In this document: in pieces, positions 22,619 through 62,470 of the stretch
How the letters are laid out: each line of letters starts with the position of its first letter
Position numbering within the stretch: the stretch's first letter is position 1
NCBI GenBank assembly: GCA_030704615.1
Contig: CM060732.1
Span: 17,980,001-18,044,000 of the forward strand
Direction: 5' to 3'
DNA: 64,000 nucleotides
Source of the DNA: Takakia lepidozioides
Taxonomy: Eukaryota > Plantae > Bryophyta
Notes under the pieces: generated by a model
What the model was told of the DNA's origin: nothing
What the model saw: the letters and a program-made list of their open reading frames with translations, nothing else
The model's database searches: none
Translations under genes and position numbers: made by a program

Positions 22619-25556
22619 CTATCCAATGGTAATCTCCGCTTTGGACTGGCATATTACTTCAGCCAAAGTCCCTTCATTACTCTGCATGTCTGCAGCTTCT
22701 TTCTTCCCTTCATCCTCACTCACTTCCTCTTCTCTTTCAGAATCAGAGGAATCTGCCATAGGAATATCAGTACTCTTCTGCATTTCCCTTATGGTATCTG
22801 CCACTTCCTTGTGCAGTTCCTTCTCATCTCTCCAAGCCTCATCATTTTCAGGCACATCACTGCCATCTTCATTATCATCATCTTCCTCATCTACTGGAGG
22901 TATTAATTTAGCTTTGCTTCTGGTTACTATCATCGTACTCACTTCTGGTGCAACACATGGCCTAACCATGTGAGCTGCCACCACTGGGCCCTCATTCACA
23001 TGAGCTCTCATCTCATTCTGGTGTCTAATCCAGAATGAACAGGCTGCCTTGCGATGTCCTGCCTGATTACAATAATAACACAATTCTTCACCATTGGGTC
23101 CTCGCCCTTGGTCTGTTCTAGGATTATTTCTGTAATCCTAATTTCCTGGCTGGTAATTCCCCCTTGGATTACCCTGATAGTTGCCCTTGGAATTTCCTTG
23201 GTAATTCCCTCTTGGATTACCTCTCCCTTCCATACCATTGTTATAACCACCAGGCCTACCATAGTGGTCCTGATCACTGTTTCTTCTTGGCTGGGGCTAC
23301 ACTTGATGCACCCTTACTTGCCTAGGTTCTCTCATAGCTGTCCTTCTGTTGTAGTAACAATTCTCAATAGAATGGTTATCCATTTTACAGATAGTACAAT
23401 GTTTCTCCTTCATGTGGCATTCAGTGGTGGTATGGCCTTCATTCTGGCACTTTGCACACCAAACACCCTTCCTCCAATCTGTTGCAGCCTCTGTGGCATA
23501 CTTCTTCAAGATTTCTTCTAATCTTTTCTCATAGTTATCCCTCTTCAACTTTTCCTTCCTCTTACTCTTCCTTTTCAACTCTTGCTCTTCTTCCTCATCT
23601 GACTCATCCTCAGAGTCCTCATCATCCCTTTTCTCTCTCCTGAGCATTCCCAATTGCTCAATTTTGTTTGCTGTTTCAAATGCCTCCTCCATTGTATTAT
23701 GGGGTAACATATCCACTTTCTTTTGCAACTCCGGTCTTAGTCCACTCACAAACCAAGTCTTCTGTAAACCTGGTGCTGGTACAGCAGCCAGCTTTTTCAT
23801 CATCAATTCCATCTTTTCCATATACTCCTCAACAGTTTCATGCTTCTTTTGCTTTAACTGTTGTAAACTTCCATATACTTCATCCTCAGTTTTACTTGTC
23901 CTGAACCTATTTCGGAATGCTGTATTCAAGCCATTCCAGGTTAGGAAATGATTATCAGGGAATCTTGCACACCATTCACTTGCTTTCTTTATAAGTGAAC
24001 AAGGAAACAGTCTCATCATGGCATCATCGCCATTCTCATTGTTCACAATACACATGTGCTCAAACTGGCTAATGTGTACATCAGGATCCCCTTTCCCTGA
24101 ATATATTGGAAAATGTGGTTTTGCCCGTGTTGGTTGTAACGCCATCTGTGGCCCTACCTTCTGTCCACTGACAGATGCTGGCCCCCTTGCTGGTGCTGGT
24201 CCTTGAGGACCTGTTGTAGTTGTGGTGGAACTTCCACCAAGTGCTGGCCCCTGAGCACTCCCTGCTACTGGCCCCACTATATTCACAGTATTCCCAACTC
24301 CAGTTGCACTACTTCCCACACTCCCTGTCCCCCTAGAGCAAGATCTAGGCTGCCCGCCTGATCCCCCTGAGCCGACACCTTCGTTGGCCTGTGATCCAAG
24401 TGCTCCACTTGATCCAGGTCCAACGGGTTGGGATGTCCTGGTTGTAGTCTCAACCTCAGCTATTGGGTCTACTTCTTCATACTCTTCCTCTTCCAATTTC
24501 TTCTCTCTGTTTTCATCCTCCAAGTTCTGCCCTTGGGTTTCTTCTTCACTCATGTAACTCAACTGCAATGGTGTTGGAGAGTCTGAACTCTCCGTTGGCT
24601 CTGCCACATCCTCTCCTCCTTGTTCGTCTTCCGTCTCAGAAACTGGAGTTCCTGCTTTTGGTGTTCCATGCCAACTCTTATCAAAGATTTCTGTCAAATC
24701 TTTTATCCAGGGATGTACCTCAGATCTTTCACCTCGTGGTTGATCTCCTTCCTGTACCAATTCCCTTAATCTTTCTTGCAAAAGAAAAAGAAGGAGTGAC
24801 ATCCAACTCTAGTTCTTCCGGTATGGGTGATGTGCTCTCTGATCTTAGTGGTGTGAGAGTCCAGATGATTCCCCTATGTCTATTCCTCTCTTCCAAAGAT
24901 ATGGATAATTAGCTTTCAGATAACTTTCTCTTTTTGCTGAATATCTCTGGAGTCTAGCTTCTCTTTCATCACTCATGTCCCATGTCTTTCATTTCTTTAA
25001 TGTGACAATAACCAAAACTCTCTTCTGTAGTATCTCTCGTATATGCCTGGGTTTCTTTCAAGCTTCAATGCACCCTTGGCTATACTAGAAGTCTCCGTTA
25101 CCATATAACCATATGGCAAACAAGTCTGGAAAGCTATTCTTGGTGTGAGTTTGATCCACAGAATATCCTTTGGAATCCAATTCTTTACCAGTACAAGCTC
25201 CTCATGCATATGAGTATAAACATTCACCTTCCTTTCCTCCCAGCCTTCAAACTCTACTCGCTTAATGGATAGCAATGCTATCACATAAACCAGTGTTGGT
25301 AACCAACGTGCTCTTCCTCTACAGGCACCTGATAAATCTTTATCACTCCTTTCTCCAGACCCCACTCAGGGTCAGCATCATGCACTCTCTTAAGAATGTT
25401 TTCTTTACAACCGTCTGGCAATTCCAAGAACCTCTGAAAAAATTGTTTGGACAATCTTTCCTTCTCAGTTTCACAGGGAATTTGATTCACATCAAATTCT
25501 TTAATTCTCCAACCACCATGATCCCACCAGATGCCTGTCACATCTGGTTGTTCATG
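22619..25556 (-). pseudogene. gag with long N-terminal extension and zinc knuckles
   Basis: FPIYSGKGDPDVHISQF...LFPCSL..KASEW, QKKHETVEEY and CCHC knuckles CAKCQNEGHTTTEC, CTICKMDNHSIENC, CYYCNQAGHRKAAC. Confidence 0.85.
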
Positions 25557-26598: not shown

Positions 26599-27339
26599 GG
26601 GGCGGGCACACGACTTAGTCTGCACTGGAGATACCCTTAGTACAGAGAAATTGACCCTGTCCGGCCGATTGGAATCTCCATCCGACCCTGGAGGAGTGTT
26701 CAATTTCCTTTTGCATGATCCAAATCTTTCAAATGGGGGAGCCTGGATTGCAAAGGGGAGCCTTCAGTGCACCTGTTCAGAGCTCTGGCCATCTTCGATG
26801 GGTCTCCGGACCTACTCGCAGCCCTTAGCATCAACAAAGTTGTATCAGGGCCCTTGCCTTCGCCCCGTCCCATCAGAAAATTGCGGTACCTGGTTTGTTG
26901 TGTAAGTGCCCGCACCATGGCATCAGTAGTGGCCACATACAAGTCACGTCCTTCTTTGGTAGACTGCTGCATCCAGGCGTTGTGAACAGTCTCCGCCAAA
27001 TTACAGGATGGCATGTCGGCCAAGTTCTCCAAGGACATGTCCTGTAGGAGGCATTGCATGGAAATGTGAGGAACGAAAGGAAATGGAAGAGGTTCTACAA
27101 GTGACAATCCAACAACCCCAAATGAACAGGCATGATGCAAAGTGAAATTTGTGTTTCTGGGATTGAAGAGGCTTACCATCGTTATGAAAGCTCCCCACTG
27201 TCTGTACCTGAAGTGCCAGAAAACCAACCAGTCCTCCAACTCCTTCAGGTGGATACCAGTAGCAGCACCAGAGGAGAACCACCAAGCCCGGATTGCTTGG
27301 TAAGTGCTCTCAGCTTCTCCCATTGAGGTGGCATTTTTG
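26599..27339 (-). pseudogene. Old MULE transposase fragment (catalytic E region) with intron 27042-27176
   Basis: WLVFWHFRYRQWG..FITM|GTAAGC...TACAG|DMSLENLADMPSCNLAETVH. The intron is at the same position as in the 28089-31681 gene. Truncated by the TIR at 27340. Confidence 0.8.
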
Positions 27340-28088
27340 GAGGTTAGCTATTTCATGAGCATGAGCGGCATGAGCGGAGTAGTAAGACAATCGGTTTTCA
27401 TGAGCAGAAGTACAAATTTCGAAAATAAAAAACAATAAAAAACAATAATTTAATGCAATGTGTCAGGAAAAATAAATATATTATTCGGCCCCTTGAAGGG
27501 AAAATTGTAGTTTTGACAGTTGTGCTCATGATATTTCGTCTTCCGCTCATGCCAATTCCCAGCGACATGTGCAAATATGGCGCCGAATTTCGCGGTAATA
27601 GGGTCCGTAACCTGAAAAAACGGCGACGTATTTCGCGGTAATAGGTCTCTCTGGCGAAAAATGGTGCCAAATTCTGCGGCTATAGGTCCCCTCATGACAG
27701 TTAATTCGGCGCCATTTTTCCAGTGCATGTTCGGACTTAGCCAGTTTTCGGCGCAAAATAGGGAAATTCGGCGCCATTTTTCCAGACACGGTACCGGTGC
27801 ATGTTGGGACTTAGCCAGTTTTCGGCCCAAAAAAGAGAAATTCGGCGCCATTTTTCCAGACACGGTACCAGTGTATGATGGGACTTAGCCAGTTTTCGGC
27901 CCCAAAAAGAGAAATTCGGCGCCATTTTTCCAGAAATGGCCCCACAACTGCTTCTGTTGGATCTCAGTTTGAATGGAATATTGCCTCATTCCAGGAGTTT
28001 TGGGGTGCATTTCATTACACTGCAAAAAAAAGTCTGATACAACAAAATGCAATTGAAAATATCCATATGGAGGATTCCCTTTGCCCCA

Positions 28089-31000
28089 TCAATGATTTCT
28101 GGAATCCCTAAGGAGGAGTTTGTGCAGCTCGTTCACGCTCAACGCCGGTGCATGAATAAAGTCATCAATAGTCACGTTCATCCTCAACCTCTTCAGGTAA
28201 ATGTAATACAGATGCTTGCACGGATAATACTTCGAACCCTTCTTTGCTTCCATCAACGAGAAGTCCGTACAACTGCAAGTCGGCTCCACTCCAATCGTAA
28301 TTGTGTATACATCGTCGCGTACAACCGAGCCGGCCGTTGCCATCCGATACACACGCCCAAGGCCGGGTGGGGGTACGTCCACGGAGCTCTGAATAGTGCA
28401 AGCCATCCCAAGAGCATTGGCAATCCGAGTCTCATTCAACTTGTTGGGAGGGTGTCGTCTCTTCACTCTTCTGAATCGCATTGTGGGATGTGCAGAATTT
28501 TCCAATCCGTCTCTACTGGACCGAGCAGTCTGCGATGGCTGGGTCTGAGGAACCGGAAATGCGTGGGCCAGGATGTCTGTGCGTTGCACCATTCGAAATC
28601 CTGCTGCAGATAGAGCATCCGCCTCATTCTGAGAGAGGCTGCAACCCGGTGCAACAGGCCAGACGCCCGGAGGCTCCGGCATTCCCTGAATCCCGTACTT
28701 GGGCTTGCCAAATACATAGGTCATTATGTCGTGCCTACAGAACCAAAATGTCTGCGTTGTGGCGTGAGCAAATGTGGGAGTCAAAAATCTGTCGCTGAAA
28801 CAAGGTGCAGGTACAGCACCGTGTGGGTTCCTCCGAATCATCTCACCACAGTGTGCTCTCGTATCCACCCGGATGGCGCAGCACTTCCCTCGAAATGCCG
28901 GCAATGTCCTCGCAATTCTCCACTGTGACTCCGACACTCTTGTCTCCACAATGGGAATGTTGTACTGCTTTACTACAAATGGCTCGTTATGTTGCCGGGG
29001 CACGCGCCCTGTGCTCAAAGGAGATGGCGATCTTGAACGTGCAGGACTTGCGGTGCTCGACGAGACCTCCTCGGGCAACATCACCGGACCACGAGGGAGC
29101 GTGCGAATATTTTTGTCAGCTCGCCATGAATCCTCTTCTCGGCCAGGTGCCTCGTCAAGTCTTCGTCTCACTGGACGGGTATGAACATCTCCTTCCAAAT
29201 GTTGGCCTCTTCGCACCAATGGCGTGTCCCGAAGGCCCTCTCGCAAGGCCGCCGCCCACTTCCGAGGATTCTTCGATCTAGAGGCAGTCCGCATCAGCAT
29301 TTCCTGCCTGTCCGGCCCCAAGCCCCACTGTTTCCCTTTCAAGAACTCGTTGTACCTGCATTGCTGCATAATTGACCTCACAATGTCCTCCGTTGTGGCA
29401 GTGAGGATGTCCACCAGATGCACCGCAGAGGAGGCACGCCAGGAAGAGTGCACTGATTCGGCCATGTTTGTTGTGGGCATGTTGGTGTCGGAGTCGAGAC
29501 ACATTTCCTGCACAAGCACATGTTGAGGTTACAAGCAAGTTACAAATATGGCCAAGAATAATATTCAACGGGACGCGAATTCATGCAACTCACCTCCCGC
29601 ATATAGTCGCCGAACTGGAGGAAACGATAATGCCACCATGCTAGCCAACTGACCATTGCTCCCTCGTCTGATTTCCTTACAACACCTGACAATGTCCACC
29701 AAGCCCGTAGAAATGCAAACTGTGTCTCTGCATCATCCAAGGTGGGAGCGCGCTTCCACGCAAGGCACATGGAACGGTGCTCCTCTCTGAAATCTGGCGC
29801 CACGAGCCTGGTTGTGTACTGCGAAAGGCTCTGCAGAAAATGGAACCCACAAGATCTCTCCTTGCCTTCCATGGGAACATTGGGGTCTTGCCCGTACACC
29901 CTTCGGATGGCAGCCCAATTTGCTTGTGCGTTTCCCGCCATGAAACCACGGAAATTGGGAGGGGGCAATCCCGCCTTGGCCATCTGTTCGTTTATTCCCT
30001 GCCAAAGAAGCATCTCCGATTGTGTGTCATCTCCTTTCATCTCACAAATAGTAATTGTCATCAGCATCCTGCAGTGGGTGTCGTAGACATGTGCACCCAT
30101 TGTCACCCACTGGTGATTTGTAATTCGCTTGATATGGTCGAACATGACCCAACTGTTTGACAAGTCCCCACTCGTCATCCTGTCGACCAGTTCGACGCTG
30201 CTGCCAGGTCCACACGTGGACATTTTGAATACGAAACAACGATCTGCCTCAGTCCCTTGTCCTGGAAACCTACTTCCATGAATGTAGTCATATCCACATC
30301 GTCGCTTCACCTCCAGAATGGAGTGCATATCCGAGCCACGCCCAATTTTCTGTTTGCATGAGACAATGTGGTTTCGGACATTCGGTGAACATACGTGGGA
30401 CACCGACTCCAGCAATGCCTCCATTTCCTTCTCATCGAGAGGAACTCTATCGGAGCCGTCTTCCGACATAATTCCGGCCAATGCCATCTTATGGGCGGCT
30501 TGGAGCTGTATCTGTTTGGGTTTGGCACCCGGTCTCAACTTAACCTCCTCCTGAACGAGCTGCTCTGCCTCGTGGGCAGCCTCCCGCGAGTTCCCCCTCG
30601 CCAATTTGTGACAATGGGAACCAACGTGTATGCAAGCTCGGGTGAGGTCAGGGAAACGGTGCAACACATAGAACTGCTTGGCATTACAAACAGACATGCA
30701 GTGTGGTGGTTCTTTGCAATGCGCACACTTAAATGTGGAGTTCGGAACCTTCTCCTGAGCTCGAAATGGTTGATGAGTTGTGCCTGTCCAATCGGTCTCG
30801 TTCCTGTGACCTCTGGATTTAAAGTGGAAGCAAGTTGGGGAGAAACACCGCAACGCGCCCGCACAAACAACGTAGCGCACCCGCACACCATCGAGCATCT
30901 TCATGCTGGTGGTTTTGGTAACGCACCAAGGATGACCGTCGTGTTTTCTATCCATATCTGTCAACATTCCGGACGCCCTCCAGTAGTCCGCCCGAGGAGG

Positions 31001-31681
31001 GAACTCAAAGAAGATATTACCGTCGACGTCGGCGGGAAGGCATGTAACCGATTTAATTGCAAACTTGCTGTAGTCCAGCCCGGCCAGCTCCGACCGGTGT
31101 CCCTCCAGGTGAAGCCCTCGCAGAATTTCAAGAATAGATCGAACTGCGGTGCTCGTGCTGGGAATATGACTCCCTCCTCCACTGACGTCCATTGAGGACT
31201 TGCCTAATCTCCAAGACGACCTCAGAACTTCCATGACCTCGTCTGAGTTGGAAAGGTTGTGAACAACCCGGTTCTCGCTCGTCTTCATGGATGGGTTCGG
31301 CTCTGGATTTACTTCGTTGCGGACCTCTCTCTTTGAGGTAGCCACTCTCTGATTCGCGGATTGTTTCGTGGAAGGCGCCAGGATAGAAGGTGCATTTGGC
31401 GTGCAAATGAAGTCCCCAACAGCCCTGTATATGACGCTGTTCGATGGTGGAACTCGCCATTCCCTGCCATCGCTGAAATCATCGTGGAGCACAACAATAC
31501 TCTCAACAACAAGGCCGTTTGAGTCCTTCCTTTCCTCCTCCAAAAAAACCGACCCCGGTTTTAGGTGGTATCGAACGCACAGATATTTCTCCATCACCCG
31601 GCAGATGTCCCCTCTGCACGGAAATGAAGCTCTATGCTCGTGAGGAGGGCAGTACACTGAAGCGCTCGGGTTTTCCGCCAT
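28089..31681 (-). CDS. MULE-family transposase, GCM-like Zn domain + DDE + SWIM (exons 31681-29594 and 29507-28089, about 1168 aa)
   Basis: Phase-0 86-bp intron GAG|GTGAGT...GTGCAG|GAA joins the two ORFs in frame. Motifs: DGHPWC..VCAG.L.C (GCM-like), WVMFDH (D1), FMAGN (D2 position is G), SCGFH (CxxH), TTNMAESVH (E), SWIM CSCTDF...PCKH. Confidence 0.85.
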
Positions 31682-31899
31682 GGGAGATGTGCACACAAGA
31701 CTGCCAGGATGGCGTGCGGGGAAGCTCCCTGGTAGAAGGGGGATGCAGCGATTGGAAGGAATGCGGTGCCGATTTGTCCGAGCGACGAAGTCTGATCCAA
31801 ATCCAGGGAGCCAACTATATCAAAAATCCACAGTCAGAATGTTAATGAACCTTGTCTCCGGAATGCGGCCCCTTGTCTTTGCGCAATAACTACCAACGG

Positions 31900-32900
31900 T
31901 ATGCAGTCAGAAAGTGGGGGGCCGTCCGGATGATGTCGGCTGAAGGGGAGAAGCCGACACCGTGCCGTCACATTACTACCCCCGAATGGAAATTCGGCAC
32001 CCAATATCCAACAGGGGCCGCACGGATGAAGTCGTCTGGGGCAGAGATGCCGGCACCTGTCCGACAGAGAACATCCCCCGGATGGAAATTCAGCGCCGAA
32101 TTTCCATTCGGATCCCCCCAAAGGATCCATCTGGCCCTCACATTACAACCCCCGGACGGAAATTCGGCACCGAATATACAACAGGGGAAGCCCAGATGAA
32201 GTCGCCTCGGGCGCGGAGGCCGGCGCGTGTGCGACAGAGAACATCCCCTGGATGGAGATTTGGCGCCGAATTTCCATCCGGGCCCCCCCAAAGGAAGTCG
32301 TGTCGGGGGGTCAGGCCGAAAACTGGCCGACATAAAAACCTCCCCAGATGGAAAAACGGCGCCGAATTTCCATCCGGGGCGGTTCGGATGCAGTCGGGGA
32401 GGGGGGAGAGGCCGGCACCTGGCCGTCACATCTCAACCCCCGGACGGAAATTCGGCACCGAATATCCAACAGTGGACGTCCGGATGAAGTCGCCTCAGGC
32501 GTAGAGGCCGGCACGTGTTCGACAGAGAGCATCCCCTGGATGGAGATTCGGCGCCGAATTTCCATCCGGGCCCCCCCAAAGGAAGTCGTGTCGGGGGGTC
32601 AGGCCGAAAACTGGCCGACTAAAAACCTCCCCAGATGACCGAATTTCCTTCCGGGGCCGTTCCAATGCAGTCGGGGAGGGGGGAGAGGCCGGCACCTGGC
32701 CGTCATATTTCAACCCCCGGACGGAAATTCGGCACCGAATATCCAACAGAGCGGCGGAGAGGCCGGCACCTCTCCGACAGAGACCATCCCCCGGATGGAA
32801 ATTCGGCGCCGAATTTCCATCGGGGCCCCCTCAAAGGAAGTCGTCAAAACCTCCCAGAATGGAAAAACGGCGCCGAATTTCCGTCCGAGGTTGTTCCGAT
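31900..32900. repeat. About 288-bp GC-rich tandem repeat (about 3 copies) built on GGAAATTCGGCGCCGAATTTCC palindromes
   Basis: Recurrent units upstream of the transposase start; same array as 58760-59890. Confidence 0.85.
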
Positions 32901-33009
32901 TTGCCTCTAGCAGTCAAGGATTCCAAGAAAAACGTGTCTACAAATGCACTTCAGCCACAAAACAAACAGTTTAGTTTGTTTTTCTCCGAAAAATCAATCG
33001 GACACGCTC

Positions 33010-33650
33010 AGAATTACCTGCAGGAAGGTAATTCAGCGCTTCGAAATACCTGGCGAATGGAAATTCGGCGCCGAATATCCATACACCAGCGATCCGACTT
33101 ACCTGCTGGATGGAAATTCGGCGCCGGATTTCCATCCATCCGCCTCCGAATTACCTGCGTGAGGGAAATTTGGCGCGCCGCCCTACCTGCGCGGATGGAA
33201 ATCCGGCGCCGGATTTCCATCCATCCGCTTCGGAATTAAATGCGTGAGGGAAATTTGGCGCGCCGCTCTACCTGCGCGGATGGAAATCCGGCGCCGGATT
33301 TCCATTCATTACCTGCGTGAGGGAAATTTGGCGCGCCGCCCTACCTGCGCGGATGGAAATCCGGCGCCGGATTTCCATCCATCCGCTTCCGAATTACCTG
33401 CATGAGGGAAATTTGGCACGCCGCCCTACCTGCGTGGATGGAAATCCGGCGCCGGATTTCCATCCATCCGCTTCTGAATTACCTGCGTGAGGGAAATTTC
33501 GCGCGCCGCCCTACCTTGCATGATGGAAATTCGGCGCCGGATTTCCATCCTGCTGCGCTCCGAATTACCTGCAGGATGGAAATCCGGCGCCGGATTTCCA
33601 TCCTGCAGCGCTCCGAATTACCTCTACGTTGGAAATTCCGTGCCGAGTTC
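33010..33650. repeat. About 80-85-bp tandem repeat containing the 30-bp palindrome GGATGGAAATCCGGCGCCGGATTTCCATCC
   Basis: Multiple adjacent copies; same array as 60000-61015. Confidence 0.85.
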
Positions 33651-42977: not shown

Positions 42978-43510
42978 TGTCGTGCGCATACATATCGCTA
43001 CACAACTACATCGCTGTCCAAACCACACCACACATATATGCACAATAAAGTAGTCTGCCACAATGATAAGAAAGCTAACAAATGACACTGCTCTCCACAC
43101 AAGAAACAATGTGAACTCCAAAACCATCACTCTTTAAAACAGTAGTCGAGCCAGGGGCACCCCAAGCTATGGGGACTCCACCCCACAACAACCTACACTC
43201 CCATCATGAGTAAACTCAGATCTAAACACACACAGGAGCTCGGTCGCGCAGGCTCAACTCGAGAAAGATGAGCCGCGCGACTGCCGCTCTCGTGAAGATA
43301 AGACGGACCAGGTGTCAAACTAAACTTGACACCTGATTTAACACTTGACCTAAATCCAAGTGTTAAATACAAATAACTAGTTTTATTCTAGCTGTTTTCA
43401 CACTGTGCTTATTTAACTTGACAGCTGTCGTGCGCATACATATCGCTACACAACTACATCGCTGTCCAAACCACACCACACATATATGCACAATAAAGTA
43501 GTCTGCCACA
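42978..43510 (-). repeat. 3' terminal repeat block A-B-A (85 + 360 + 85 bp)
   Basis: Two identical 85-bp TG...CA units flank a 360-bp TG...CA unit. The PPT (AGGGGGGCGA on the element strand) is at 43512-43522. Confidence 0.9.
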
Positions 43511-43768
43511 ATCGCCCCCCTAGCTGGTGGATAGGTCCCTCTACCTCCAGATAGCTACAAGATGTAATAGCCACAGCCGTACTAAGTCCTCTATCACTGT
43601 CCCTATTGTACTCAAACTCTATAGACCAAGAGGCCGGGTACAAGAGTAGCCCCATCGTTAGTCGCCGTCTTGCAATCTGTGAACTTGAGCCAGATCTCGT
43701 GTGTTCAAGGTCTCCTAGTAGCTGGGCTTGCGTTTCTTGTTAGCCTCCCATGGTTGTATCCACTCCCA

Positions 43769-46700
43769 CTATCCAATGCAATGTGGACATAACCAATCCC
43801 CATCCGGAACCATCTCAAGAGGTGGAGTCAAGCATCCCATATGCCAACCTCTAGAGCACCGATCACATACCAGCATGGTGGCTGCCCCTTTAGCAGACCC
43901 ACACAACATGCACCTCAAACCTGCAGATACCACTGCCAGGTTTGGGTCAATCCTGCCATCGACATTCGGAAGGTGACATGGCGCACAATTACGCACATGG
44001 TCCTTCCAAGTGATGCCATCCCGACCCTCCAAGACCAAGACGCCTGAGGGCAAGACCTCTCGAACCCTCAAAATAACACGTCCTGCAGTCACATCCAGGG
44101 TCGTAGGAGCAGTCTGCTGCAGATAGACATAGTCACCAGGGTTGAATCTCCGAACCCCAGGACGATAGCCCCCACCACGTATGGTAGCATACCTCAACGT
44201 ATCACGGTGTTGTGCAATGGCAAGGTTCTCGAAAGCCATAGGCATGACTCTCTTGAACAACTCTGCACGCTGCTCACATGCACGTGCCCACACGTCCGGA
44301 TCGTCAAGGTTAAGAACTGTAGCAGCTTCTCTGCGAATGGATGTAGGCAAATCCGGCTCTCGGCCAAAGAGAAGAAAGTATGGTGAGAAGAGGCAAGTGA
44401 TGCTTGCTTGCTGAACCTGTAGCCCATGGCTAACCAGGGTAACTGAAGGTCCCAATCTCCTAGGTGTCCCTTCTGCAAGCCATACTTGCGCAAACCCCTC
44501 TTTACTGTCTGAACAACTCTCTCTGCCAAGCCATCGGCTTCAGGATGATCCCGAGAAGTGGTGCGGTGGTCTATCAAGGCTTTGTCACACAAAGCCTGAA
44601 ACTCCCCCAAGAACTCTCTCCCTTGGTCCGTGAGTACCTCAGCTGGAGCACCGAATCGGCTAAGCACACAATCCAGGAATGCATACGCAGCTCCCTCACT
44701 AGCCTTATCAGGCAATGGAACCAATTCAATCCACTTGGAGAAGTGCTCCACCATCACCAACACGTACTTGTTGTGGCGCATGGTCAGTGGCAACGGCCCT
44801 GCGAAGTCAAGACTCCACCTGTAGCCCAATCCCATGATCGGAAGAGGGTGCAATTGTGGAGTAGGGGCGTTGAATGAAGCACGCACCCTGTCACACACCA
44901 TGCACCTAGCCACAAATTGTTGCACCTCTGTGTGCATACCACGCCACCAATACTGCCCCTGCAGTAGACTATGAGTGCGTCGCACCCCAAAATGCCCCAA
45001 CTCCTCATGGGCATGCCGCACTAACCGTGCCCGCTGTGTTGGGTGAGGCACAATCCTCACTCGACCATCCTCCCACACTCGGAGCAGGTGTGTCCCCTCC
45101 CACCTGAACCTCTTGGCTCGTTGTAGGATCCGATCCCTCTCCTTGGCAGTCATAGTGGCTGCCGTGTCTCCACTGCGGAGGTAGTCCAACACAACTGAAT
45201 CCTCATGTATATCTTTGGCGCCACCCTGCTCATTGCTGGCCTCAGGGTCCTCAGACACTTGATCTACAGTCATCCCTGTTGTAGGTCCAACCTGGCCTTC
45301 CGCTGCCAAGATACACAGAAATGCAGATGCATGCCATCCGGGCACCATCTCCTCGTCCGTCTCACCATGCCACCGAGCTCCAGTGTCATCCTGCTGGCTC
45401 GTGCATGGATTGCGACTCAACCCATCTGCATTTCGATTGACCAAACCCGGTCGATGCACCACCTGAAAGTCATACTCTTGAAGGATGAGTGCCCACCGTG
45501 CAAGCTTCCCCGTAAGCTTGTCTGACTCCATCAACCACTTGAGTGGTTGGTGATCCGTGACAAGGGTGAAGAGATTGCCGTATAGATAGCACCTGAAGTG
45601 TGCCACGGCCCACACTGCAGCTAAGCATTCTCCCTCATATGAGCTATACTTAGACTCTGCAGCATTGTTCGAGCGGCTAGCATAAGCCACTACGAACTCT
45701 CTTCCCTCATCATCCACCTGTGTGAGCACCGCTCCAAGCCCCAGCATGCTCCAATCTGTATGCAGCTGAAAAGGACGCCCCCTGATAGGTCGTCTCAAGA
45801 TGGGCGCCGAGGTCAACCTCGCCTTGAGCTCTTGAAAAGCTTGTTCTTGCTCATCTTCCCACTGCCACTCCTGGTCCACCTTGGTCAGCTTGGTTAGAGC
45901 CTTTGCAATGGCACTAAATCCCTTAACAAACCGTCTGTAATAGTTTGCTAACCCCATGAAAGCTCGAACTCGGCTCACATCCGTGGGGCGTGGAACCTGT
46001 GCAATGGACTCTACCTTAGTCTGCTGTACCCCCAATCCTCCAGGATATATCATGTGACCCAGATACTCAATCTGGTTGTGGAAAAACTTGCACTTGCCCG
46101 GATGTAACTTCAATCCGTGCGTCCTCAAGCGCTCAAATACCCCCTGAAGGTGTCTCTCATGCTCCTCCACCGTAGCACTAAAGATGATGATGTCATCTAT
46201 GTAGCACCGAGCAAACTCCACCCCTGCTAGAATCCTGTCCATGACTCTTTGAAACTCAGCGGGAGCGTTTTTAAGCCCAAATGGTAAGAACCGCCACTGG
46301 TATAGGCAATCCTTCCCGTGCTCATTGATCCCCCAGAATGCCGTCTTTTGCTTATCCGCCTCCTTGATCGGCAACTGGTGATATCCGGATCGTAAATCCA
46401 ACGTGCTAAAGACCTTGGAATGCCCAATGGCATCAAAGATCTCCTCTGGTGTTGGCATGGCATACCTATCGGACTTGGTCTGACGATTTACAGGCCGGTA
46501 ATCACCGCACATACGTCTCTCCGTCCAATTGCCATAGACATCCTTCTTAGCTGGCATCACTGTGGCTGAAGCATACTCTCCACCAGAGAGCTCCACCAAA
46601 CCTGCCTCCCAGAGATCTTGAGTCCTCATCTGAATCAAAGACCTCTCCATGTCACTGTATCTATAGGGTCTCCGAAAGATTGGCGTGTCAGTGGCCAACT

Positions 46701-46902
46701 CAATACGGATCTCTTGACCCTTCAGTGCTCCCAAGTCCTTCAAACTGAAGGCAAAGCAATTCCTGTAAGCCCTCAGGAACCGCCGTATACGTCGTCTCTC
46801 TCCTCCGGTGACAATGGGTCCAATATCAGGCTCCCAATTGTCCTCCGTAACTGCAACCTTAAGTCCAGTGGGCTTAGAGGTAGAGGACGCGTCCCGTGGT
46901 TG
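43769..46902 (-). CDS. RT - RNase H - integrase - PHD finger (one 1-nt frameshift near 44395)
   Basis: LDLRSGYHQ, YIDD, HTDWS, HEELGH..CMVC, SLDF/LTDQG/AER. C-terminal CMLC...CDRC..GWHMGCL.PPL..VP.GDWLCPHC is a C4HC3 PHD finger. Confidence 0.9.
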
Positions 46903-47199
46903 CTATGCTGCAACCTCTTGAGCAGTACCCCCTTCCTGCTCAGTCAATGACAAGGCCTCATCCTGCCCCATCATCTCATCATTGAGAACCTCCTCATCCC
47001 GAGAAGAATCCCCAACCTCATCCATCACAGCTGCCTTCGCTGCCAACTCCCTCTGAACCTCGAGCACCTCCCACATGTGCCATGGATGTCTACACCTCGT
47101 GGTCCTCACCGGCTCGCCCCCACTCGCTGCCTGTACCGTCTCGGTAGGCAGAGAGACCATCAAGGGAAGTGCACTCCGCACTCTACGTTGCTCAGCCAT

Positions 47200-48150
47200 A
47201 GCCAAGCTGACAATCCAGGTCAAGCAATTGAGATCCATTGCTTGCCCCAACACCTGACGACGTGATGCCTCAGAAAGAGAAGGCACCGCCGTGGTCCCAG
47301 TGGAAAACCCCATAGCCCGCTCTCGCTCGTCGGCATTAGGCTCCACTAACTGCTGCAACTGAGCATCCCACAGGAGGCCAGGTCCACCATCCCGAAAAGC
47401 ATGGGATCCTGGGAAGCTGAGCAGTGTAGGTAATGCTGCTCGTGGTTGACCCACCCTGTTGACCACTGCCAAAGGCGAACGGTCATCGTGTCTCACACGT
47501 TGAGACTGCCTTCCTGTGTCCAAAATGCCATCCACGGTGAGGTGTGCTGGCCGCTGCACCCCATCAAATGCACGCTTGAGCAGTGCGGGTGGCATCAAGT
47601 TAGTCCACCATAGTCGTGGACGATGAGCCCGTGACCCCACTGCAGCTGCATCCAGCAACACTGCTGACCCAAGCCACGACCGGACTTGATGCACACTGGC
47701 CATCACCCTGGCCCGAGAATCACCCATCAGTGGTACATTCTCCAAGATGTATGCTGGAGATACAGCTTGATGAAGCTGCAAGGCGCAAAATCCGCACCAT
47801 CTCCCAAAACAGACCCGTCCTCGAGTCTCGCAATCCATTGCCATGCCCGGCTGATGAATGCCCTTGGCAGGGCCAACCTGCCACTATCAGATCAATGGAG
47901 CCAACCTGCTCCAAATCTTGCGCCCCCAACAAGAAATGTCTGCTGGCAAGGCTTGTTGGTATCCACGAACTGCAGACACAGGCAACAAGTCAGGGTACTG
48001 CTGTACCAACTGAGCCACATGGCGCAGTGAGACGCGTCGTGCAGTCTCATCCCTCTCCACATACAGGTAACGCCTTACCCGCACACCTGCCTGTAGCACA
48101 GCAGCCAATCCGGTGCTGATCCCGCCAAACAAGTCCAGAAGGCAAATGCC
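47200..48150 (-). CDS. DNMT3-like C5-cytosine DNA methyltransferase domain (two 1-nt frameshifts at about 47935 and 47780)
   Basis: Motif I LLDLFGGISTG, II YVERD, IV DLIVAGWPCQG, VI ILENV, VIII AHRPRLWWTNL, IX ERERAMGF, X RRQVLGQAMDL, in non-permuted order. Confidence 0.9.
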
Positions 48151-48399: not shown

Positions 48400-49000
48400 T
48401 GCATGGGCATTGCCTTCCAGCAACTCTCCAGGCCAACTAACTGCAGCTGTGAAGGCGGCTAGTGTTGGCATCTTGCCCCGCTGGGCAGCTGCAATACCCC
48501 CAATGAATGTCACAGGGAGCTGTGCACGGCGACCATCCCCTGACTGCCATCCAGGCCTGTAGGATGCTGACTCCTCCCAGAAATCCAGGGTGAAGCCCAT
48601 GGGGTATAACACTGCCCCACCAACGAGGACATCGTAAGAGACCGCGTCTGTCACAATGGCCTTGGCTCGCATCACTGAGCCATCTACAGGATGATCCGGC
48701 TGCAGTCTAATAGCCAACTGATGCCGTGTCATGCCGCGAGCCTGCTCTGATCCTCCCAGAGATGTCTGTATCTGGAAAGGACAAGGCTCCATATCCGCCT
48801 CCATGAGGCCCAAACCTGCAATAGCAGCTCTGCCCAACATCAGTGGCTGAGCTCCTGAGTCCAACAAGACCCGCAGTGGCCGGTACTTCTTGCCTGCCGG
48901 TCCACTCAAAGTGAAAATGCCTCCCTGGTTGTCTAACAAGACAACTCCAGGTGTCACCATGGCGCGCTCAATGGCTGGCCTAGCTGGCAGCTCCGTCAAC
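48400..49000 (-). CDS. Aspartic protease domain
   Basis: VLLDSGAQPLMLG ... YDVLVGG in ORF 47887-49206. Confidence 0.85.
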
Positions 49001-49175: not shown

Positions 49176-51105
49176 TCATGTTGCCGAGAACAGTGGGGCC
49201 TGACACACAGAGGTGGCTGCCCCCAATAACACACCGGCCGCACTAGCCTTGGCAGCAGGAGTCAATGCTGCACGTGTAGCTCTCCCCAATGGCATAGTAA
49301 CCTCCGCCTCGGTAACAGTCGGGCGAGAACTAGGTGCCATGGATGGCGTTGACACAGTCTCCGCCAATGTGAATGACTGAGGAAGCCTTGCCTGACGGCT
49401 TGCCTCCCCACGCTGTGGATCCAATTCCACCTCTGCACCTCGTGGCTCAGGAACTCGTGCTGCTCCTCGAGTCACGGCTGCAGCAGACTCCACCTGCTCT
49501 AGTGGTAGTGCTGCTCCGCACATAAATCCCATGCCTCCCATATCTCCTCCCTCAGGAGCAGGAGGTGGGCCATCCCGCCTGGGAGCCGGTACCGCCTGAG
49601 CTATAGCCATGGCAGCGAGCCTCTGCTCTAGCTGCTGAAGCCGATTGGCCATGCCTTGGTCAACACCCTGACCTCCGCGTCCTTGGCCATGTGGAGGTTG
49701 CCCTTGGCCTGCACCTCGTGCCCGACCACCTCGTCCTCTTTGGGCTGGTCCACCTCGCCCCCGGCCACCATTGTTCCCTTGGAACTGGCCTGGGCGCAAC
49801 TCAGGATGCAAGTCATAACACTGGGCATCTCCATGCCCATACTTGCCACAATGCCCACACTGCAACTGTGCAGGCTGTGCTTGTGCCGGCCTTCTGCCAC
49901 TCTCTGGGCAATCTCTCTTGACATGGGGTCCTCCACATGTCCAACATATCACCCCTGGTTGCTGTTGGCCTGCAAAAGATGCCACGGGCCTCTGCACCTG
50001 AGGTCCCCTGTAAGCTCCATGGAACTTGGGCTGGGCAACCTTGCCCCCTGACCACGCTGTTGGGCAGTCCCTTGTGCTTGTGGGCTGACAGCTGTGCCTC
50101 GTACAGGCATGTCCTTACCAAATCCAATTGTAACAACTCGCTCCTCCACCATGTTGAGCTCAATCCGCTCAGCCAGCAGAAACACATCTGCTAATGTGGG
50201 TTGGGCTGCTTGTAACAGGGTTGCATCTCGCACCCTTCTCTTGAGCTCCTTGTCCAGAATTCCATACCAAAACTGGATTGCCTGAGCTTCAGTAACCCCT
50301 TGGGTCACACTTATCAAGCGCCTCATACGAGTGTACGCCTCTCGCAGGCTCTCACTGGGTTTGCGCTGGAAGTCTTGCAAACTTTGCAGCTTCTCTGTCC
50401 GTACACCTTGGTAGTTCCTCCGCAACTCCTGGAAGAACTCCACCACCGGTTGAATCTAGGCACATGTGTTGTAGCTGTGGCAGGAGGAGTAGTAGCACCT
50501 TCTGAACTGGTACCACCTGCAGAAGTACCAGCACTACCTGCTCCACTACTAGTGCTGGCAGTGGGAGCTATTGTTACTGATGCAGCTACTGGTCGCGTCA
50601 TGCCTCGAGTAATGGAGATGTAGTCAGGTGACCAATACATCCTCCACTCCTCAATCTCTGCTTCATGTCCTCGCCTGAACTCGTGGTAATCGTCCATAGG
50701 CGGGCCTTCCAAATGCTGGAACAGTCCCTTCCACGCCATGAATGGGGTGAATAGATGTGGATTGCGCATCTGCTGCAAATCACACCAGCTGTCGAACTCC
50801 TGGATAAAGTCATCCAACTCGATTGTGCCCACAGCTCCAGAGTACCTACGAGGCCCCTTGGTAGCTCCATACATCTCCTCCATGTCGTCCCACAACAATG
50901 GCGAGTGAAAGTGCACACCTGTTGATGAAGCCTCCGAGCCTGTGTCTGACTCTACAGTAATTGAGGGTGGCGGTGAAGGTGGTCTGAACCAAATACCTCG
51001 TCTTGTGAACCCACTCTCACTGTTACTGCCTGTAGCCGTACTCCTCTCAAAACCCTTGGGTAACTCCGTAATGACACTCACAATGTGCACCTCCTCCAGT
51101 GACAC
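49176..51105 (-). CDS. gag with two zinc knuckles (1-nt frameshifts at about 50455, 50050 and 49178)
   Basis: PRRYSG...LDDFIQEF..WC, FQRKPSESLREAYTRM, CWTCGGPHVKRDC, CGHCGKYGHGDAQC. Confidence 0.85.
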
Positions 51106-54422: not shown

Positions 54423-54434
54423 ATCTTTCTCGAG
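54423..54434 (-). promoter_or_regulatory. Putative self-priming site (replaces tRNA PBS)
   Basis: CTCGAGAAAGAT directly follows the 5' repeat and is the exact reverse complement of element-strand ATCTTTCTCGAG at 54640-54629. No TGG-starting PBS. Confidence 0.75.
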
Positions 54435-54794
54435 TGATAAGAAAGCTAACAAATGACACTGCTCTCCACACAAGAAACAATGTGAACTCCAAAACCATCA
54501 CTCTTTAAAACAGTAGTCGAGCCAGGGGCACCCCAAGCTATGGGGACTCCACCCCACAACAACCTACACTCCCATCATGAGTAAACTCAGATCTAAACAC
54601 ACACAGGAGCTCGGTCGCGCAGGCTCAACTCGAGAAAGATGAGCCGCGCGACTGCCGCTCTCGTGAAGATAAGACGGACCAGGTGTCAAACTAAACTTGA
54701 CACCTGATTTAACACTTGACCTAAATCCAAGTGTTAAATACAAATAACTAGTTTTATTCTAGCTGTTTTCACACTGTGCTTATTTAACTTGACA
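54435..54794 (-). repeat. 5' terminal repeat B (360 bp)
   Basis: No differences from 43064-43423 seen by eye. Confidence 0.95.
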
Positions 54795-56595: not shown

Positions 56596-57026
56596 TGTCG
56601 CGGCCGTTTGCCTTGAGGGCAGGGGGTCGGGATACATGAGGGGCTGCCCCTGTGGTGGGGGCAGTGGCAGCGATAGGTACGGGGGGCTGAAGCACCCTTG
56701 AGTGCCCAAGGCACTCAAGGAGCCGGAGGTGCTCACTAGGTGGAGCCCCGCACACCGGGATGCGGTGGGGGTGGCTTCACAAAGGGGTGGTGGTAGCTTA
56801 GCGGGACTTAGTGGGGGTGGCATAGGACTCACCTTGGGGCGGAGACCTCGTGGTGGGAGTCGTGGGGAGTCTTGGGACTCATCACGGTCCATAGGGGCCG
56901 TGGTGGTGGGCCAAGACTCACCGCGACTCATCACCGGGAGTCGAGGGTTTTCGTGGTGGTTCGCCATAAAATGGCATGGTTGTTTGTGAAACCCCCGCGG
57001 ACAGCTACAAAAGTATATATAGGGAG
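56596..57026 (+). repeat. Chromovirus 3' LTR, truncated
   Basis: Matches 40424-40855, then switches abruptly to the MULE terminus. Confidence 0.9.
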
Positions 57027-57664
57027 GAGGTTAGCTATTTCATGAGCATGAGCGGCATGAGCGGAGTAGCAAGACAATCGGTTTTCATGAGCAGAAGTAC
57101 AGATTTCGAAAACAAAAAACATTATAAAACATTAATTTAATGCAATGTGTCAGAAAAAACAAATATATTATTCGGCACCTTGAAGGGAAAATTGTAGTTT
57201 TGAGAGTTGTGCTCATGATATTTCGTCTTCCGCTCATGCCAATTCCCAGCGACATGTGCAAAAATGGCGCCAAATTTCGCGGTAATAGGGTCCGTAACCG
57301 GAAAAATCCGCGACGTGTTTCGCGGTAATAGGTCTCTCTGGCGAAAAATGGTGCCGAATTCCGCGGCTATCGGTCCCCTCATGACAGGTGTGTAAGCCCA
57401 AAATTTGGAAATGTGGCGCCGAATTTCGGTACATGGTGTGCCGGGGATTGCACAGATGTTGGGCAGTTCTGGGTCATGTAACTGGAAATTCGGCCCAAAA
57501 TAGAGAAATTCGGCGTTTTTTTTTCCAGAAATGGCCCCACAACTGTTTCTGTTGGATCTCAGTTTGAATGGAATATTTCCTCATTCCAGGAGTTTTGGGG
57601 TGCATTTCATTACACTGCAAAAAAAAGTTTGATACATGAAAATGCAATTGAAAATATCCATATG

Positions 57665-58489
57665 GAGGATTCCCTTTGCCCCATCAATGATTTCTGGAAT
57701 CCCTAAGGAGGAGTTTGTGCAGCTCGTTCACGCTCAACGCATCGGCTGTTGGCCTCTTCGAAGCAATGGCGTGTCCCGAAGGCCCTCTCGCAAGGCCGCC
57801 CGAGGAGGGAACTCAAAGAAGATATTACCGTCGACGTCTACGGGAAAGCATGTAACCGATTTAAATGCGAACTTGCTGTAGTCCAGCCCGGCCAGCTCCG
57901 AGCGGTGTCCCTCCATGTGAAGCCCTCGCAGAATTTCAAGAATGGATCGAACTGCGGTGCTCGTGCTGGGAATATGACTCCCTCGTCTACTGACATCCAT
58001 TGAGGACTTGCCTGATCTCCAGGACGATCTCGGAACTTCCATGACCTCGTCTGAGTCGGACAGGTTGTGAATAACCTGGTTCTCGCTCGTCTTCATTGAT
58101 GGGTTTGGCTCTGGATTTACTTCGTTGCGGACTTCTCTCTTTGAGGTACCCACACACTGATTCGTGGATTGTTTCGTGGAAGGCGCCAGGATAGAAGGTG
58201 CATTTGGCGGGCAAATGAAGTCCCCAACAGCCCTGTATATGACACTGTCCGATGGTGGAACTCATCATTCCCTGCCATCGCCGAAATCATCGTGGAGCAC
58301 AACAATACTCTCGACAACAACGCCGTTTGAGTCCTTCTTTTCCTCCTCCAAAAAAACCAACCCCGGTTTCAGGTGGTATCGAACGCACAGATATTTCTCC
58401 ATCACACGGCAGATGTCCCCTCTGCACGGAAATGAAGCTCTATGCTCGTGAGGAGGGCAGTACACTGAAGCGCTCGGGTTTTCCGCCAT
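57665..58489 (-). pseudogene. Deleted copy of the MULE transposase
   Basis: Matches 28089-28147, 29200-29257 and 30988-31681. One junction has CCGCCC microhomology (about 57796-57801). Confidence 0.85.
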
Positions 58490-58759
58490 GGGAGATGTGC
58501 ACACAAGACAGCCAGGATGACGTGCGGGCAAGCTCCCTGGTAGAAGGGGGATGCAGCGATGGGAAGGAATGCGGTGCCGATTTGTCCGTGCGACGAAGCC
58601 TGATCCAAATCCAAGGAGCCAACTATCTCAAAAATCCACAATCAGAGTGTTAATGAACCTTGTCTCCGGAATGCGGCCCCTGGTCTTTGCGCAATAACTG
58701 CCAACGGTATGCAGTAAGAAAGTGGCGGGCCGTCCGGATGATGTCGGCTGAAGGGGAGA

Positions 58760-59890
58760 AGCCGGCACCGGGCCGTCACATTACTACCCCCGGATGGAAA
58801 TTCGGCACCGAATATCCAATAGGGGCCGCCCGGTTGAAGTCGCCTCGGGCAGAGAGGCCGGCACCTGTTCGACAGAGGACATCCCCCGGATGGAAATTCA
58901 GAGCCGAATTTCCATCCGGGCCCCCGAAAGGAAGTCCTGTCGGGGGGTTAGGCCGAAAACTGGCCGACATAAAAACCTCCCCGGATGGAAAAACGGCACC
59001 GAATTTCCATCCGGGGCCGTTCGGATGCAGTCGGCCCGGGGGAAGAGGCCGGCACCTGGCCGTCACATTACAACCCCCGGACGGAAAATTGGCACCGAAT
59101 ATCCAACAGGGGACGCCCGGATGAAGTCGCCTCGGGCGGAGAGGCCGGCACCTGTCCGACAGAGAGCATCCCCCGGATGGAAATTCGGCGCCGAATTTCC
59201 GTCCGGGCCCCCCCAAAGGAAGTCCTGTCGGGGGGTCAGGCCGAAAACTGGCAGACATAAAAACCTCCCTGAATGGAAAAACAACGCCGAATTTCCATCC
59301 GGGGCCGTTCGGATGCAGTCAGCTCGGGGGGAGAGGTCGGCACCTGGCCGTCACATTACAACCCCTGGACGGAAACTCGGCACCGAATATCCAACAGGGG
59401 ACGCCCGGATGAAGTCGCCTCGGGCGGAGAGGCCAGCACCTGTCCGACAGAGAGCATCTCCCGGATGGAAATTTGGCACCGAATTTCCATCTGGGCCCCC
59501 ACAAAGGAAGTCTTGTCGGGGGGTCAGGCCAAAAAGTGGCCGACATAAAAACCTCCCCGGATGGAAAAACGGCGCCGAATTTCCATCCGGGGCTGTTCGG
59601 ATGCAGTCGGCTCGGGGGGAGAGGGCGGCACCTGGCCGTCAAATTACAACCCCCGGACGGAAATTCGGCACCGAATTTCCAACAGAGGACGCCCGGATGA
59701 AGTCGCTTCGGGCGGAGAGGCCGGCACCTGTCCGACAGAGAACATCCCCCGAATGGAAATTCGGCGCCGAATTTCCATCCGGGCCCCCCCAATGGAAGTC
59801 GTGTCAGGGGGTCTGGCTGAAAACAGGCCGACATAAAAACCTCCCTGGAAGGAAAAACGGCGCCGAATTTCCGTCCGGGGCCGTTCGGAT
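58760..59890. repeat. 288-bp tandem repeat (about 4 copies)
   Basis: Equivalent ORF starts at 58985, 59273 and 59561 give a period of 288. Confidence 0.9.
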
Positions 59891-59999
59891 TTCCCCCTAG
59901 CAGTCGAGAATTCCCTGAAAAACGTATCTAAAAGTGGACTTCAGCCAAAAAAAACTAAAGGTTTAGTGTCTTTTTAGACCAAAAACCTAGCGGCCACGC

Positions 60000-61015
60000 T
60001 CAGAATTACCTGCAGGATGGTAATTCGGCGCTTCGACTTACCTGGCGGATAGAAATTCGGCGCCAAATTTCCATCCAGCAGCGATCCAAGGTACCTGCTG
60101 GATGGAAATTTGGCGTCGGATTTCCGTCCATCTGGGCTCCAAATTACTTGCAGGATGGAAATTCGGCACCGGATTTCCATCCATCCGCTCTCCGAATTAC
60201 CTGCATGACGGAAATTCGGCGCTCCGAGTTACTTGCAGGATGGAAATTCGGTGCCGGATTTCCATCCATCCGCCCTCCGAATTACCTGCCTGACGGAAAT
60301 TCGGCGCTCCGAGTTACCTACAGGATGGAAATTCGGCGCCGGATTTCCATCCGGCCGCGCTCCGACTTAGCTGGCGGATGGAAATCCGGCGCCGGATTTC
60401 CATCCATCCGCTCTTCGAATTACCTGCATGACGGAAATTTGCAGCACCGACTTACCTGGAGGATGGAAATCCGGCGCCGGATTTCCATCCATCCGCGCTC
60501 CGAATTACTTGCACGATGGAAATTTTGCGCGCCGACCTTCCTGGCGGATGGAAATCCGGCGCCGGATTTCCATCCATCCGCTCTTCGAATTACCTGCATG
60601 ACGGAAATTTTGCGCGCCGACTTAGCTGGCGGATGGAAATCCGGCGCCCGATTTCCATCCATCCGCTCTTCGAATTACCTGCATGATGGAAATTTTGCGC
60701 GCCGACTTACTTGGAGGATGGAAATCCGTCGCCGGATTTCCATCCATCCGCGTTCCGAATTACCTGCATAACGGAAATTTTGTACCTGGCGGATGGAAAT
60801 CATGCGCCGGATTTCCATCCATCCGCTCACAAGTAACCTGCATGACAGAAATTTGCAGCGCCGACTTACCTGGAGGATGGAAATCCGGCGCCGGATTTCC
60901 ATCCATCCGCTCTACGAATTACCTACATGACGGAAATTTTGCGCGCCGACTTATCTGGCGGATGGAAATCCGGCGTCGGATTTCCATCCATCCGCTCTGT
61001 GAATTACCTGCATGA
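60000..61015. repeat. About 84-bp tandem repeat with 30-bp palindrome
   Basis: GGATGGAAATCCGGCGCCGGATTTCCATCC recurs about every 84 bp. Confidence 0.9.
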
Positions 61016-62470
61016 CTGGAAAAATGGCGCCGAATTTCCGATTTTGGTGCTAGTCAGATCTGGGACTTAGCCATTTTCGGCCCCGAAATGGAAAAATGGC
61101 GCCAGAAAAAAAAAACAAAAACAAAAAAAACGCCATTTTTCCAGTTCGGGGTCGAAAACGGCTAAGTCCTAGATCTGACTGGCACCAAAATCGGAAATTT
61201 GGCGCCATTTTTCCAGTTCTGGGCCCAGTCATATCTGGGACTTAGCCATTTTCGGCCACCAAATGGAAAAATGGCGCCATTTTTCCAGTTCAGGGCCTCG
61301 AAAATGGCTAAGTCCCTACGGTGGCTGGAACCGCAACTGGAAATTCGGCACCATTTTTCCAGTTCCGCGCCCTATCAGATCTAGGACTTAGCCATTTTCG
61401 GCCCAAAACTGGAAAAATGGCGCCGAAAAAAAAAACAAAAAAAAAAAAAAAACGCCATTTTCCCAGTTTGGAGCCGAAAATGGCTAAGTCCCAGATCTGA
61501 CTGGCACCAAAATCGGAAATTCGGCATCATTTTTCTAGTTCCGGGCCAAGTCAGATCTGGGACTTAGCCATTTTCGGCCCCGAAATGGAAAAATGGCGCC
61601 ATTTTTCCAGTTTAAGGCCCCGAAAATGGCTAAGTCCCTAGGGTGGCTGGAACCGCAACCGGAAATTCGGCGCCATTTTTCCAGTTCCGCGCCCTGTCAG
61701 AGCTGGGACTTAGCCATTTTTGGCCCCGAACTGGAAAAATGGCGTCATTTTTCCAGTTCGGGGCCAAAAATGGCTAAGTCCTTAGGGTGGCTGGCAGCAA
61801 AATCGGAAATTCGTCGCCATTTTTTCAGTTCCGGGCCCAATCAGATCTGGGACTTAGCCATTTTCGGCCCCGAAATGGAAAAATGGCGCCGAAAAAAAAA
61901 ACAAAAAAAAAAAAACGCCATTTTTCCTGTTCGGGGCCTAAAATGGCTAAGTCCCAGATCTGACTGGCACCAAAATCGGGAATTCGGCGCCATTTTTCCA
62001 GTTCCGGGCCCAGTCAGATCTGGGACTTAGCCATTTTCGGCCCCGAAATGGAAAAATGGCGCCATTTTTCCAGTTCAAGGCCCCGAAAATGGCTAAGTCC
62101 CTAGGGTGGCTGGAACCGCAACCGGAAATTCGGCGCCATTTTTCCAGTTCCGCGCCCTGTCAGATCTGGGACTTAGCCATTTTTGGCCCCGAACTGGAAA
62201 AATGGCTAAGTCCTTAGGGTGGCTGGCAGCAAAATCGGAAATTCGGCGCCATTTTTCCGGTTCCGGGCCCAGTCAGATCTGGGACTTAGCCATTTTCAGC
62301 CCCGAAATGGAAAAATGGTGCCATTTTTCCAGTTCAGGGCCCTGAAAATGGCTAAGTCCCTAGGGTGGCTGGAACCGCAACCGTAAATTCGGCGCCATTT
62401 TTCTAGTTCCGCGCCCAGTCAGTTCTGGTACCTAGCCATTTTCGGGCCCAACCTAGGAAAATGGTGCCGA
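61016..62470. repeat. Complex tandem/inverted array of GGAAAAATGGCGCCATTTTTCC and GGGACTTAGCCATTTT units
   Basis: Related to the arrays at 27700-27935 and 36580-37345. Confidence 0.85.

Follow-up and report, generated by a model that had tools for sequence, protein, structure and literature searches.

A single in-frame TAG interrupts the coding region of a retrotransposon in the moss Takakia lepidozioides. Does this codon mark the decay of one copy, or is it a programmed signal shared by a whole lineage of elements? The locus was analysed in a window of 64,000 nucleotides of contig CM060732.1 (assembly GCA_030704615.1), to which all coordinates refer. A preliminary description, made from the letters of the window alone, had read the codon as a leaky stop of the tobamovirus type situated after a protease and a methyltransferase, and had named a sense codon such as CAG in other copies as the mark of a private mutation.

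Coding organization of the element

The element is of the Ty3/Gypsy type and spans 54794-42978 on the minus strand, with Gag, protease (PR) and DNMT3 before the stop and RT, RNase H (RH), integrase (INT) and a PHD finger after it. The Gag region (50100-51015, minus strand), disrupted by frame slips in the window copy, was recognized from a Retrotrans_gag match (E 5.8e-4, below the Pfam cut-off) and by tblastn with intact relatives. The aspartic protease (48560-48890, minus strand, bounds approximate), with the motif LLDSG, was placed by translation and alignment, Asp_protease_2 matching the relatives below its cut-off. It is followed by a DNMT3-like C5 cytosine methyltransferase (47230-48150, minus strand), in which alignment reveals the catalytic motifs PCQ and ENV. 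The relative P0093 matches DNA_methylase (E 3.7e-10), with DNMT3A (E 6e-9) and DNMT3B as the best PDB matches. The methyltransferase domain is complete about 115 codons upstream of the stop, and thus ORF1 alone encodes the whole enzyme. ORF2 (43772-46902, minus strand) encodes RT (46518-46048), RNase H, integrase and the PHD finger (43912-43778), supported by matches to RVT_1 (1.7e-32), RT_RNaseH (6.2e-36), rve (5.4e-14) and PHD (4.8e-11).

The junction reads GCA GCA TAG CAA CCA CGG on the minus strand, the letters up to CCA being those that had been given for the end of the methyltransferase frame. TAG (46903-46905) ends ORF1 (Gag-PR-DNMT3) and is followed by CAA (46902-46900), CCA (46899-46897) and CGG, a CAR-YYA-xxG context of the tobamovirus type (46894-46902). 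An open frame extends over 326 codons upstream (47883-46906) and 902 codons downstream (46902-44197), and TAG is the sole stop in the gag-pol coding path. The remaining breaks are, as described previously, changes of frame, six in all (near 50480, 50080, 49200, 47925, 47782 and 44450). Those near 47925 and 47782 lie inside the methyltransferase, so that the window copy, as assembled, is untranslatable up to the stop; with six frame changes in this copy, the readthrough reading concerns the family. The 360-nt repeats of the element are nevertheless identical (360/360) and several slips lie beside homopolymer runs, as might result from assembly error or from a young defective copy.

The downstream frame had been described as an RT ORF of 849 aa. 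It is indeed open, but that ORF begins at TTG (46743), and the first in-frame ATG after the stop is found only at codon +85 (46650), 3' of conserved N-terminal RT-region sequence. In two relatives, L033 and L046, the first in-frame ATG is codon +117. The conserved segment upstream of the first ATG, W..G..L....R...F...CFAF, is also encoded by relatives in which DNMT and RT are fused; a search with the ORF2 N-terminus gave four matches.

Repeats and neighbouring sequences

Repeat A (54435-54794, minus strand, 360 nt) forms the left end of the element, starts with TG next to a TATT flank and is identical to 43423-43064. The opposite end (42978-43521, minus strand) comprises a polypurine tract (PPT) and 3' repeats arranged B-GC-A-T-B, ending in CA with TATT again at the flank. 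The split repeats are DIRS-like (A-internal-B-A-B) in both the window and the relative L038, which also has the same 3' layout. No tRNA-type primer site was found in the window element. A predicted primer-binding site of 12 nt (54423-54434, minus strand; 16 nt in L038) is complementary to 54640-54629 in repeat A, which suggests Tf1-like self-priming with transcription starting near 54640.

The B|A repeat junction is a 10-nt palindrome, GACA-GC-TGTC, in all families listed (window 43420-43429; L002:12307, L037:8235, L038:10347, L047:5080 and L088:7051). The integrated ends are the two halves of this palindrome, with 4-bp duplications of TATT in the window and AAGG in L038. The A-internal-PPT-B-A-B layout resembles the product of inserting a two-LTR circle, with B-GC-A as the LTR, via an internal site and not via the LTR ends; integration through an internal palindrome would not be usual behaviour for a DDE integrase. 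Identity with Troyka was considered and rejected, as TG..CA ends and 4-bp duplications differ from the CG..CG ends and 3-bp target duplication of that element (PMC12440569).

Another Ty3/Gypsy element in the window (16829-24808, minus strand) is disrupted and not related to the first; it comprises Gag, RT, RNase H and integrase (identity about 30%), together with tandem arrays of 10-nt units and repeats at 13253 and 25904. Its CpG observed/expected ratio is 0.29, compared with 0.50 in the DNMT element. Two further regions (27339-33600 and 57026-62470) contain long ORFs, a SWIM finger (28089-31819, minus strand) and arrays whose units measure 96, 85, 95 and 72-74 nt; they are duplicated in part, some 27-30 kb apart, and are possibly Mutator-like elements.

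Conservation of the stop in related elements

A search with the methyltransferase and the linker after it returned 54 proteins of 675-2151 aa plus 18 longer ones, the closest named relatives being Calypogeia, Marchantia and Sphagnum proteins (53-73% identity). Many relatives are Gag-PR-DNMT proteins without RT that end 77-163 aa past the last methyltransferase motif (GQAMD), with the C-termini EVVV, EQVS, EVAV and EGVA; the window has EVAA. They include database proteins of additional families, whose ends lie at the corresponding position. Representative proteins that end 40-260 aa past DNMT, 34 in number, are for the most part fragments and were left out of the count of stops.

A metagenome scan gave 71 loci, the 53 strongest of which were examined with the window (54 sequences; L054-L071 lie outside the count). 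The junction was locatable in 41 of the 54; the junctions of L024 and L025 lie behind a slip and were left out of the 41, as were weak methyltransferase loci in viral contigs (16) and in GTDB (five besides L088). The codon is TAG in 33 junctions, TAA in seven and TAC in one, always in frame with RT, so that 40 of the 41 have a stop at this homologous position. L088 likewise has the stop. No CAG occurs, and TAC, the sole sense codon, belongs to a decayed copy. The junctions represent seven families, between which local nucleotide identity is about 80% or below: the window family, L007, a moss-like family (33 loci) whose linker matches the Sphagnum protein P0014, L031, L028/L033, L037/L052 and L046. 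Alignment of the families, which the preliminary description had suggested as a check, showed that the stop, its frame and CAR-YYN are kept at the nucleotide level across all seven. In L033, which is intact (1369 aa-TAG-1047 aa), the stop is the sole interruption, and L088, a member of the L046 family from a genome bin, is otherwise intact too (at least 1162 aa-TAG-1047 aa). The bin is labelled as a cyanobacterium; an intact eukaryotic retrotransposon contig in it likely reflects bin contamination.

Private decay of a dead copy, by CAG-to-TAG or TGG-to-TAG change, would agree with the six slips in the window copy and with C-to-T/G-to-A being the commonest differences between copies (among 40 of 212 variants). 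It is refuted by the 40 stops in seven families and by the two otherwise intact elements, and the window sequence across 46300-47277 recurs unchanged in a contig of a different study; the probability of private decay is close to nil. None of the same 40 variants falls at 46897-46905. The window family is very large, with 14,260 contigs on 46300-47500 in the richest run (four of 18 listed runs compared). In one contig of organism C, as a single copy, an extra nucleotide is inserted about 60 nt upstream of the stop. The stop is therefore confirmed as real and conserved lineage-wide, and not a private mutation.

Nucleotide context of the stop

CAR-YYA directly follows the stop at six of six positions in five families and at five of six in the other two; among 5,716 in-frame hexamers of the elements, 0.28% have this form. 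The codons are CAA CCA in the window and L007, CAG TTA in L033, and CAA TCA in L037 and L046. The exceptions are the largest family, the moss-like one, with CAA CCC, and L031, which reads TAG-TAG-CCA. Codon +2 is thus CCA, CCC, TTA or TCA, encoding Pro, Leu or Ser, and this variation indicates that the constraint acts on the nucleotides (YYN) and not on the residue. Elsewhere in these elements, YYA follows an in-frame Gln codon in 5.8% of 275 occurrences. G at +9 (the xxG of codon +3), a feature added here to the preliminary description together with the predicted stem considered below, is present in all seven families against a background of 30%. A at -1 (xxA before the stop) is found in three families including that of the window, whose sequence is a full match to xxA-UAG-CAR-YYA-xxG. 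The retroelements RIRE2 and SIRE1 are also reported to carry CARYYA. The seven families fall in two clades and are therefore not seven independent trials.

The same codons bear on a second explanation, namely that free Pol is made by termination-reinitiation or internal initiation at an ATG or GTG just past the TAG. Such a codon is present at +3 or +5 in six of the seven families (chance 0.005 for seven independent families, 0.036 for five lineages), and 32 of the 33 moss-like loci have ATG at +3. Moreover, the junction of Tca2 has a weak promoter (PMC2194720). However, the window family has neither ATG nor GTG there (CGG and GCG), its nearest near-cognate codon being ACG at +19, and elsewhere both the position and the codon vary between families. 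Each position can be accounted for otherwise, the G of codon +3 belonging to the tobamovirus motif and codon +5 to the base of the stem, and reinitiation needs no leaky CAR-YYA context. Free Pol also requires a packaging route of its own. Initiation past the stop is thus considered unlikely.

Structure predicted 3' of the stop

In the window, the sequence at +11 to +26 after the stop (46877-46892, minus strand) is predicted to form the 5' arm of a long-range stem of 15 pairs (probability 0.73-1.0), with +98 to +114 (46789-46805, minus strand), in ORF2 codons G-G-E-R-R, as the 3' arm and the best partner among 389 windows. A stem of 10-17 bp is predicted in seven of eight representatives, where +11 to +29 pairs with a partner 60-90 nt further in codons G[AG]E[RA]R; it starts 11-15 nt after the stop across families. 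Pair probabilities are mostly above 0.8 in six of the eight and 0.4-0.8 in L016, and the stem is lost in L028. The partner ranks first among all windows in four of the eight only.

The arms, which were picked after inspecting folds, pair more strongly than synonymous-randomised sequence in seven of seven families (p 0.0015-0.017; 0.009-0.050 with a free partner), and three of 35 control sites fell below 0.05 in this test. Pairing energies are -9 to -25 kcal/mol within a clade compared with -5 to -13 kcal/mol across clades, between which the register is shifted by about two bases. Paired bases co-vary at synonymous positions (AGA/AGG, GAA/GAG and ACA/ACT/ACC). Whole-window folding z-scores are mixed, with +1 to +120 below -2 in four of seven families, and the signal of a codon-shuffle folding scan was not specific to the stop site; the arm-pairing tests alone discriminate. 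Short hairpins are also predicted at -60 to -1 of the stop, with z from -1.2 to -3.5 in six of seven families and 0.06 in the window.

The 5' arm is relevant to a third explanation, in which partial splicing of the Ogre type removes the stop, or the TAG itself is a 3' splice acceptor. Ogre has an intron between GAG-PROT and RT (PMC6317226), four annotated plant gene models (P0005, P0006, P0012 and P0014) join DNMT to RT and skip the junction, and a pyrimidine run ending in AG follows the stop in three families. On inspection, no two of the four gene models cut at the same place. The pyrimidine run is missing from the second clade, ends in varying phases and coincides with the 5' arm of the stem; U content upstream of the TAG is 6-12 of 35, not above that of ordinary YAG sites, and the spacer consists of one stop codon within an open frame and not of a 270-nt non-coding stretch. 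To our knowledge, CAR-YYA-xxG plays no part in splicing. The TAA copies failed as a test against splicing: they make up six of the 23 dereplicated loci, occur at scattered points of the tree and are compatible with G-to-A decay. Overall, removal of the stop by splicing appears very improbable.

Comparison with known recoding sites

Programmed readthrough at the TAG is the best reading of these sequences, and very probably the correct one. Most ribosomes would terminate at the TAG and release Gag-PR-DNMT3, and a smaller fraction would incorporate a residue there and go on to Gag-PR-DNMT-RT-RH-INT-PHD. Both CAR-YYA-xxG and the predicted stem would stimulate this event. In plants, the tobacco mosaic virus context gives 6-10% readthrough in stable lines with insertion of tyrosine (PMC2754532). 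As a caution, the plausible-looking junction of Tca2 failed to direct readthrough in a reporter (PMC2194720).

Type I sites of tobamoviruses, benyviruses and pomoviruses share with these elements UAG-CAR-YYA, xxG at codon +3 and a polymerase downstream (PMC3159437, PMC3542737, PMC2754532), and xxA-UAG-CAA-UUA-xxG does not vary among 105 tobamovirus sequences (Firth et al., 2011; PMC3159437). In contrast to these viruses, the host of the site is here an LTR retrotransposon with a predicted long-range stem; tobamoviruses are described as lacking extended conservation, and the local hairpin predicted in benyviruses, the only structure described for them, is a partial precedent for motif plus hairpin. 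Type I is defined by local context alone, with no extended 3' structure, unlike the present site, where a conserved stem is predicted. That stem resembles the alphavirus type (PMC3159437) in its 10-15 bp, in arms lying 60-90 nt apart, in its nearness to the stop and in its compensatory changes. Type II alphavirus sites differ in having UGA-CUA/CGG and a spacer of 8-9 nt, compared with UAG/UAA-CAR and 10-14 nt before the predicted stem here.

Among retroelements, one in-frame stop setting the ratio of structural to enzymatic protein has been described after gag in MuLV, Tj1 (PMC4600332), Tca2 (PMC2194720) and VdLTRE5 (PMC3441728), and after pol in SIRE1 (PMC2194720). Transposition of Tj1 requires its stop (PMC4600332), and rice RIRE2 was named as a readthrough candidate (PMC2754532). 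As these sources describe them, none of the six has a protease and a methyltransferase upstream of the stop, in contrast to the present elements. A stop after PR and the methyltransferase had been called unusual; its position is as stated, but it is less unusual than was supposed because plant Ogre already has GAG-PROT split from RT-RH-INT (PMC6317226). Ogre differs in that a spacer of about 274 nt is spliced out; here, the two parts are separated by one codon in an open frame with no U-rich acceptor.

A Gypsy element with DNMT3 and DIRS-like repeats, KnitGypsy-Dnmt3, has been reported from Klebsormidium (de Mendoza et al., 2018; PMC5890265). Compared by description, it shares the Gypsy order with a DDE integrase, the DNMT3-like methyltransferase and the DIRS-like split repeats. 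Its methyltransferase is placed in the Pol polyprotein ORF, and the text available names no stop or readthrough, whereas DNMT ends ORF1 here and the closest named proteins are those of liverworts and Sphagnum.

Origin of the stop

A quick RT tree with 45 rows unites nine stop-bearing rows and two Marchantia models in one clade (SH-aLRT 95), with the fused DNMT-RT proteins P0051 and P0056 outside it and 30 elements of the order RT-RH-DNMT-INT in a separate clade. Similarly, a DNMT tree of 144 rows contains a 13-row clade (support 0.87) with 11 stop-ended ORF1s and no fused member; fused proteins, including P0056, P0051/P0094, P0101 and others, are outside relatives. A profile search gave, among its 150 best representatives, seven fused DNMT-RT proteins and 74 with the RT-RH-DNMT-INT order. 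On these trees, rooted by midpoint only, the simplest reading is that the stop would have been gained once from a fused ancestor. In the large sister group (P0029-P0047 and P0057-P0072, with the 74 representatives just named), a single ORF carries a related DNMT after RNase H and before integrase, and the domain has therefore moved within Pol.

Implications for retrotransposon-borne methyltransferases

Retroelement readthrough and Gypsy-DNMT3 elements are each known. Their combination was not found in the literature searched, which did not include the recoding survey of Gao et al. (2003) or Repbase and gave no description of this stop; as far as their accessible text goes, a 2026 EpiLTR preprint, PMC12344493 and PMC9940879 contain no such stop. 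Prior notice is possible. Annotation pipelines miss the site, as plant gene models use predicted introns to skip the stop or split the element. Verified cases of plant readthrough were all viral as of 2009 (PMC2754532), and the present site, if the reading is true, would extend programmed readthrough, as a natural and conserved case, to nuclear elements of land plants.

Readthrough at this position would keep output of the methyltransferase at the level of Gag, far above RT, and the Gag-fused enzyme would enter particles at high copy. A fuller proposal, which we put forward tentatively and regard as somewhat doubtful, is that this bryophyte-centred Gypsy lineage uses a hybrid cassette of tobamovirus motif and long-range stem to make DNMT3 at capsid stoichiometry, load it into particles and methylate its own cDNA before integration; the packaging of DNMT and its action on cDNA are speculation. 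An excess of enzyme over RT, with the signal kept across diverged families, would point to a role of the methyltransferase in the particle or on the cDNA, and may thus bear on the purpose of retrotransposon-borne methyltransferases.
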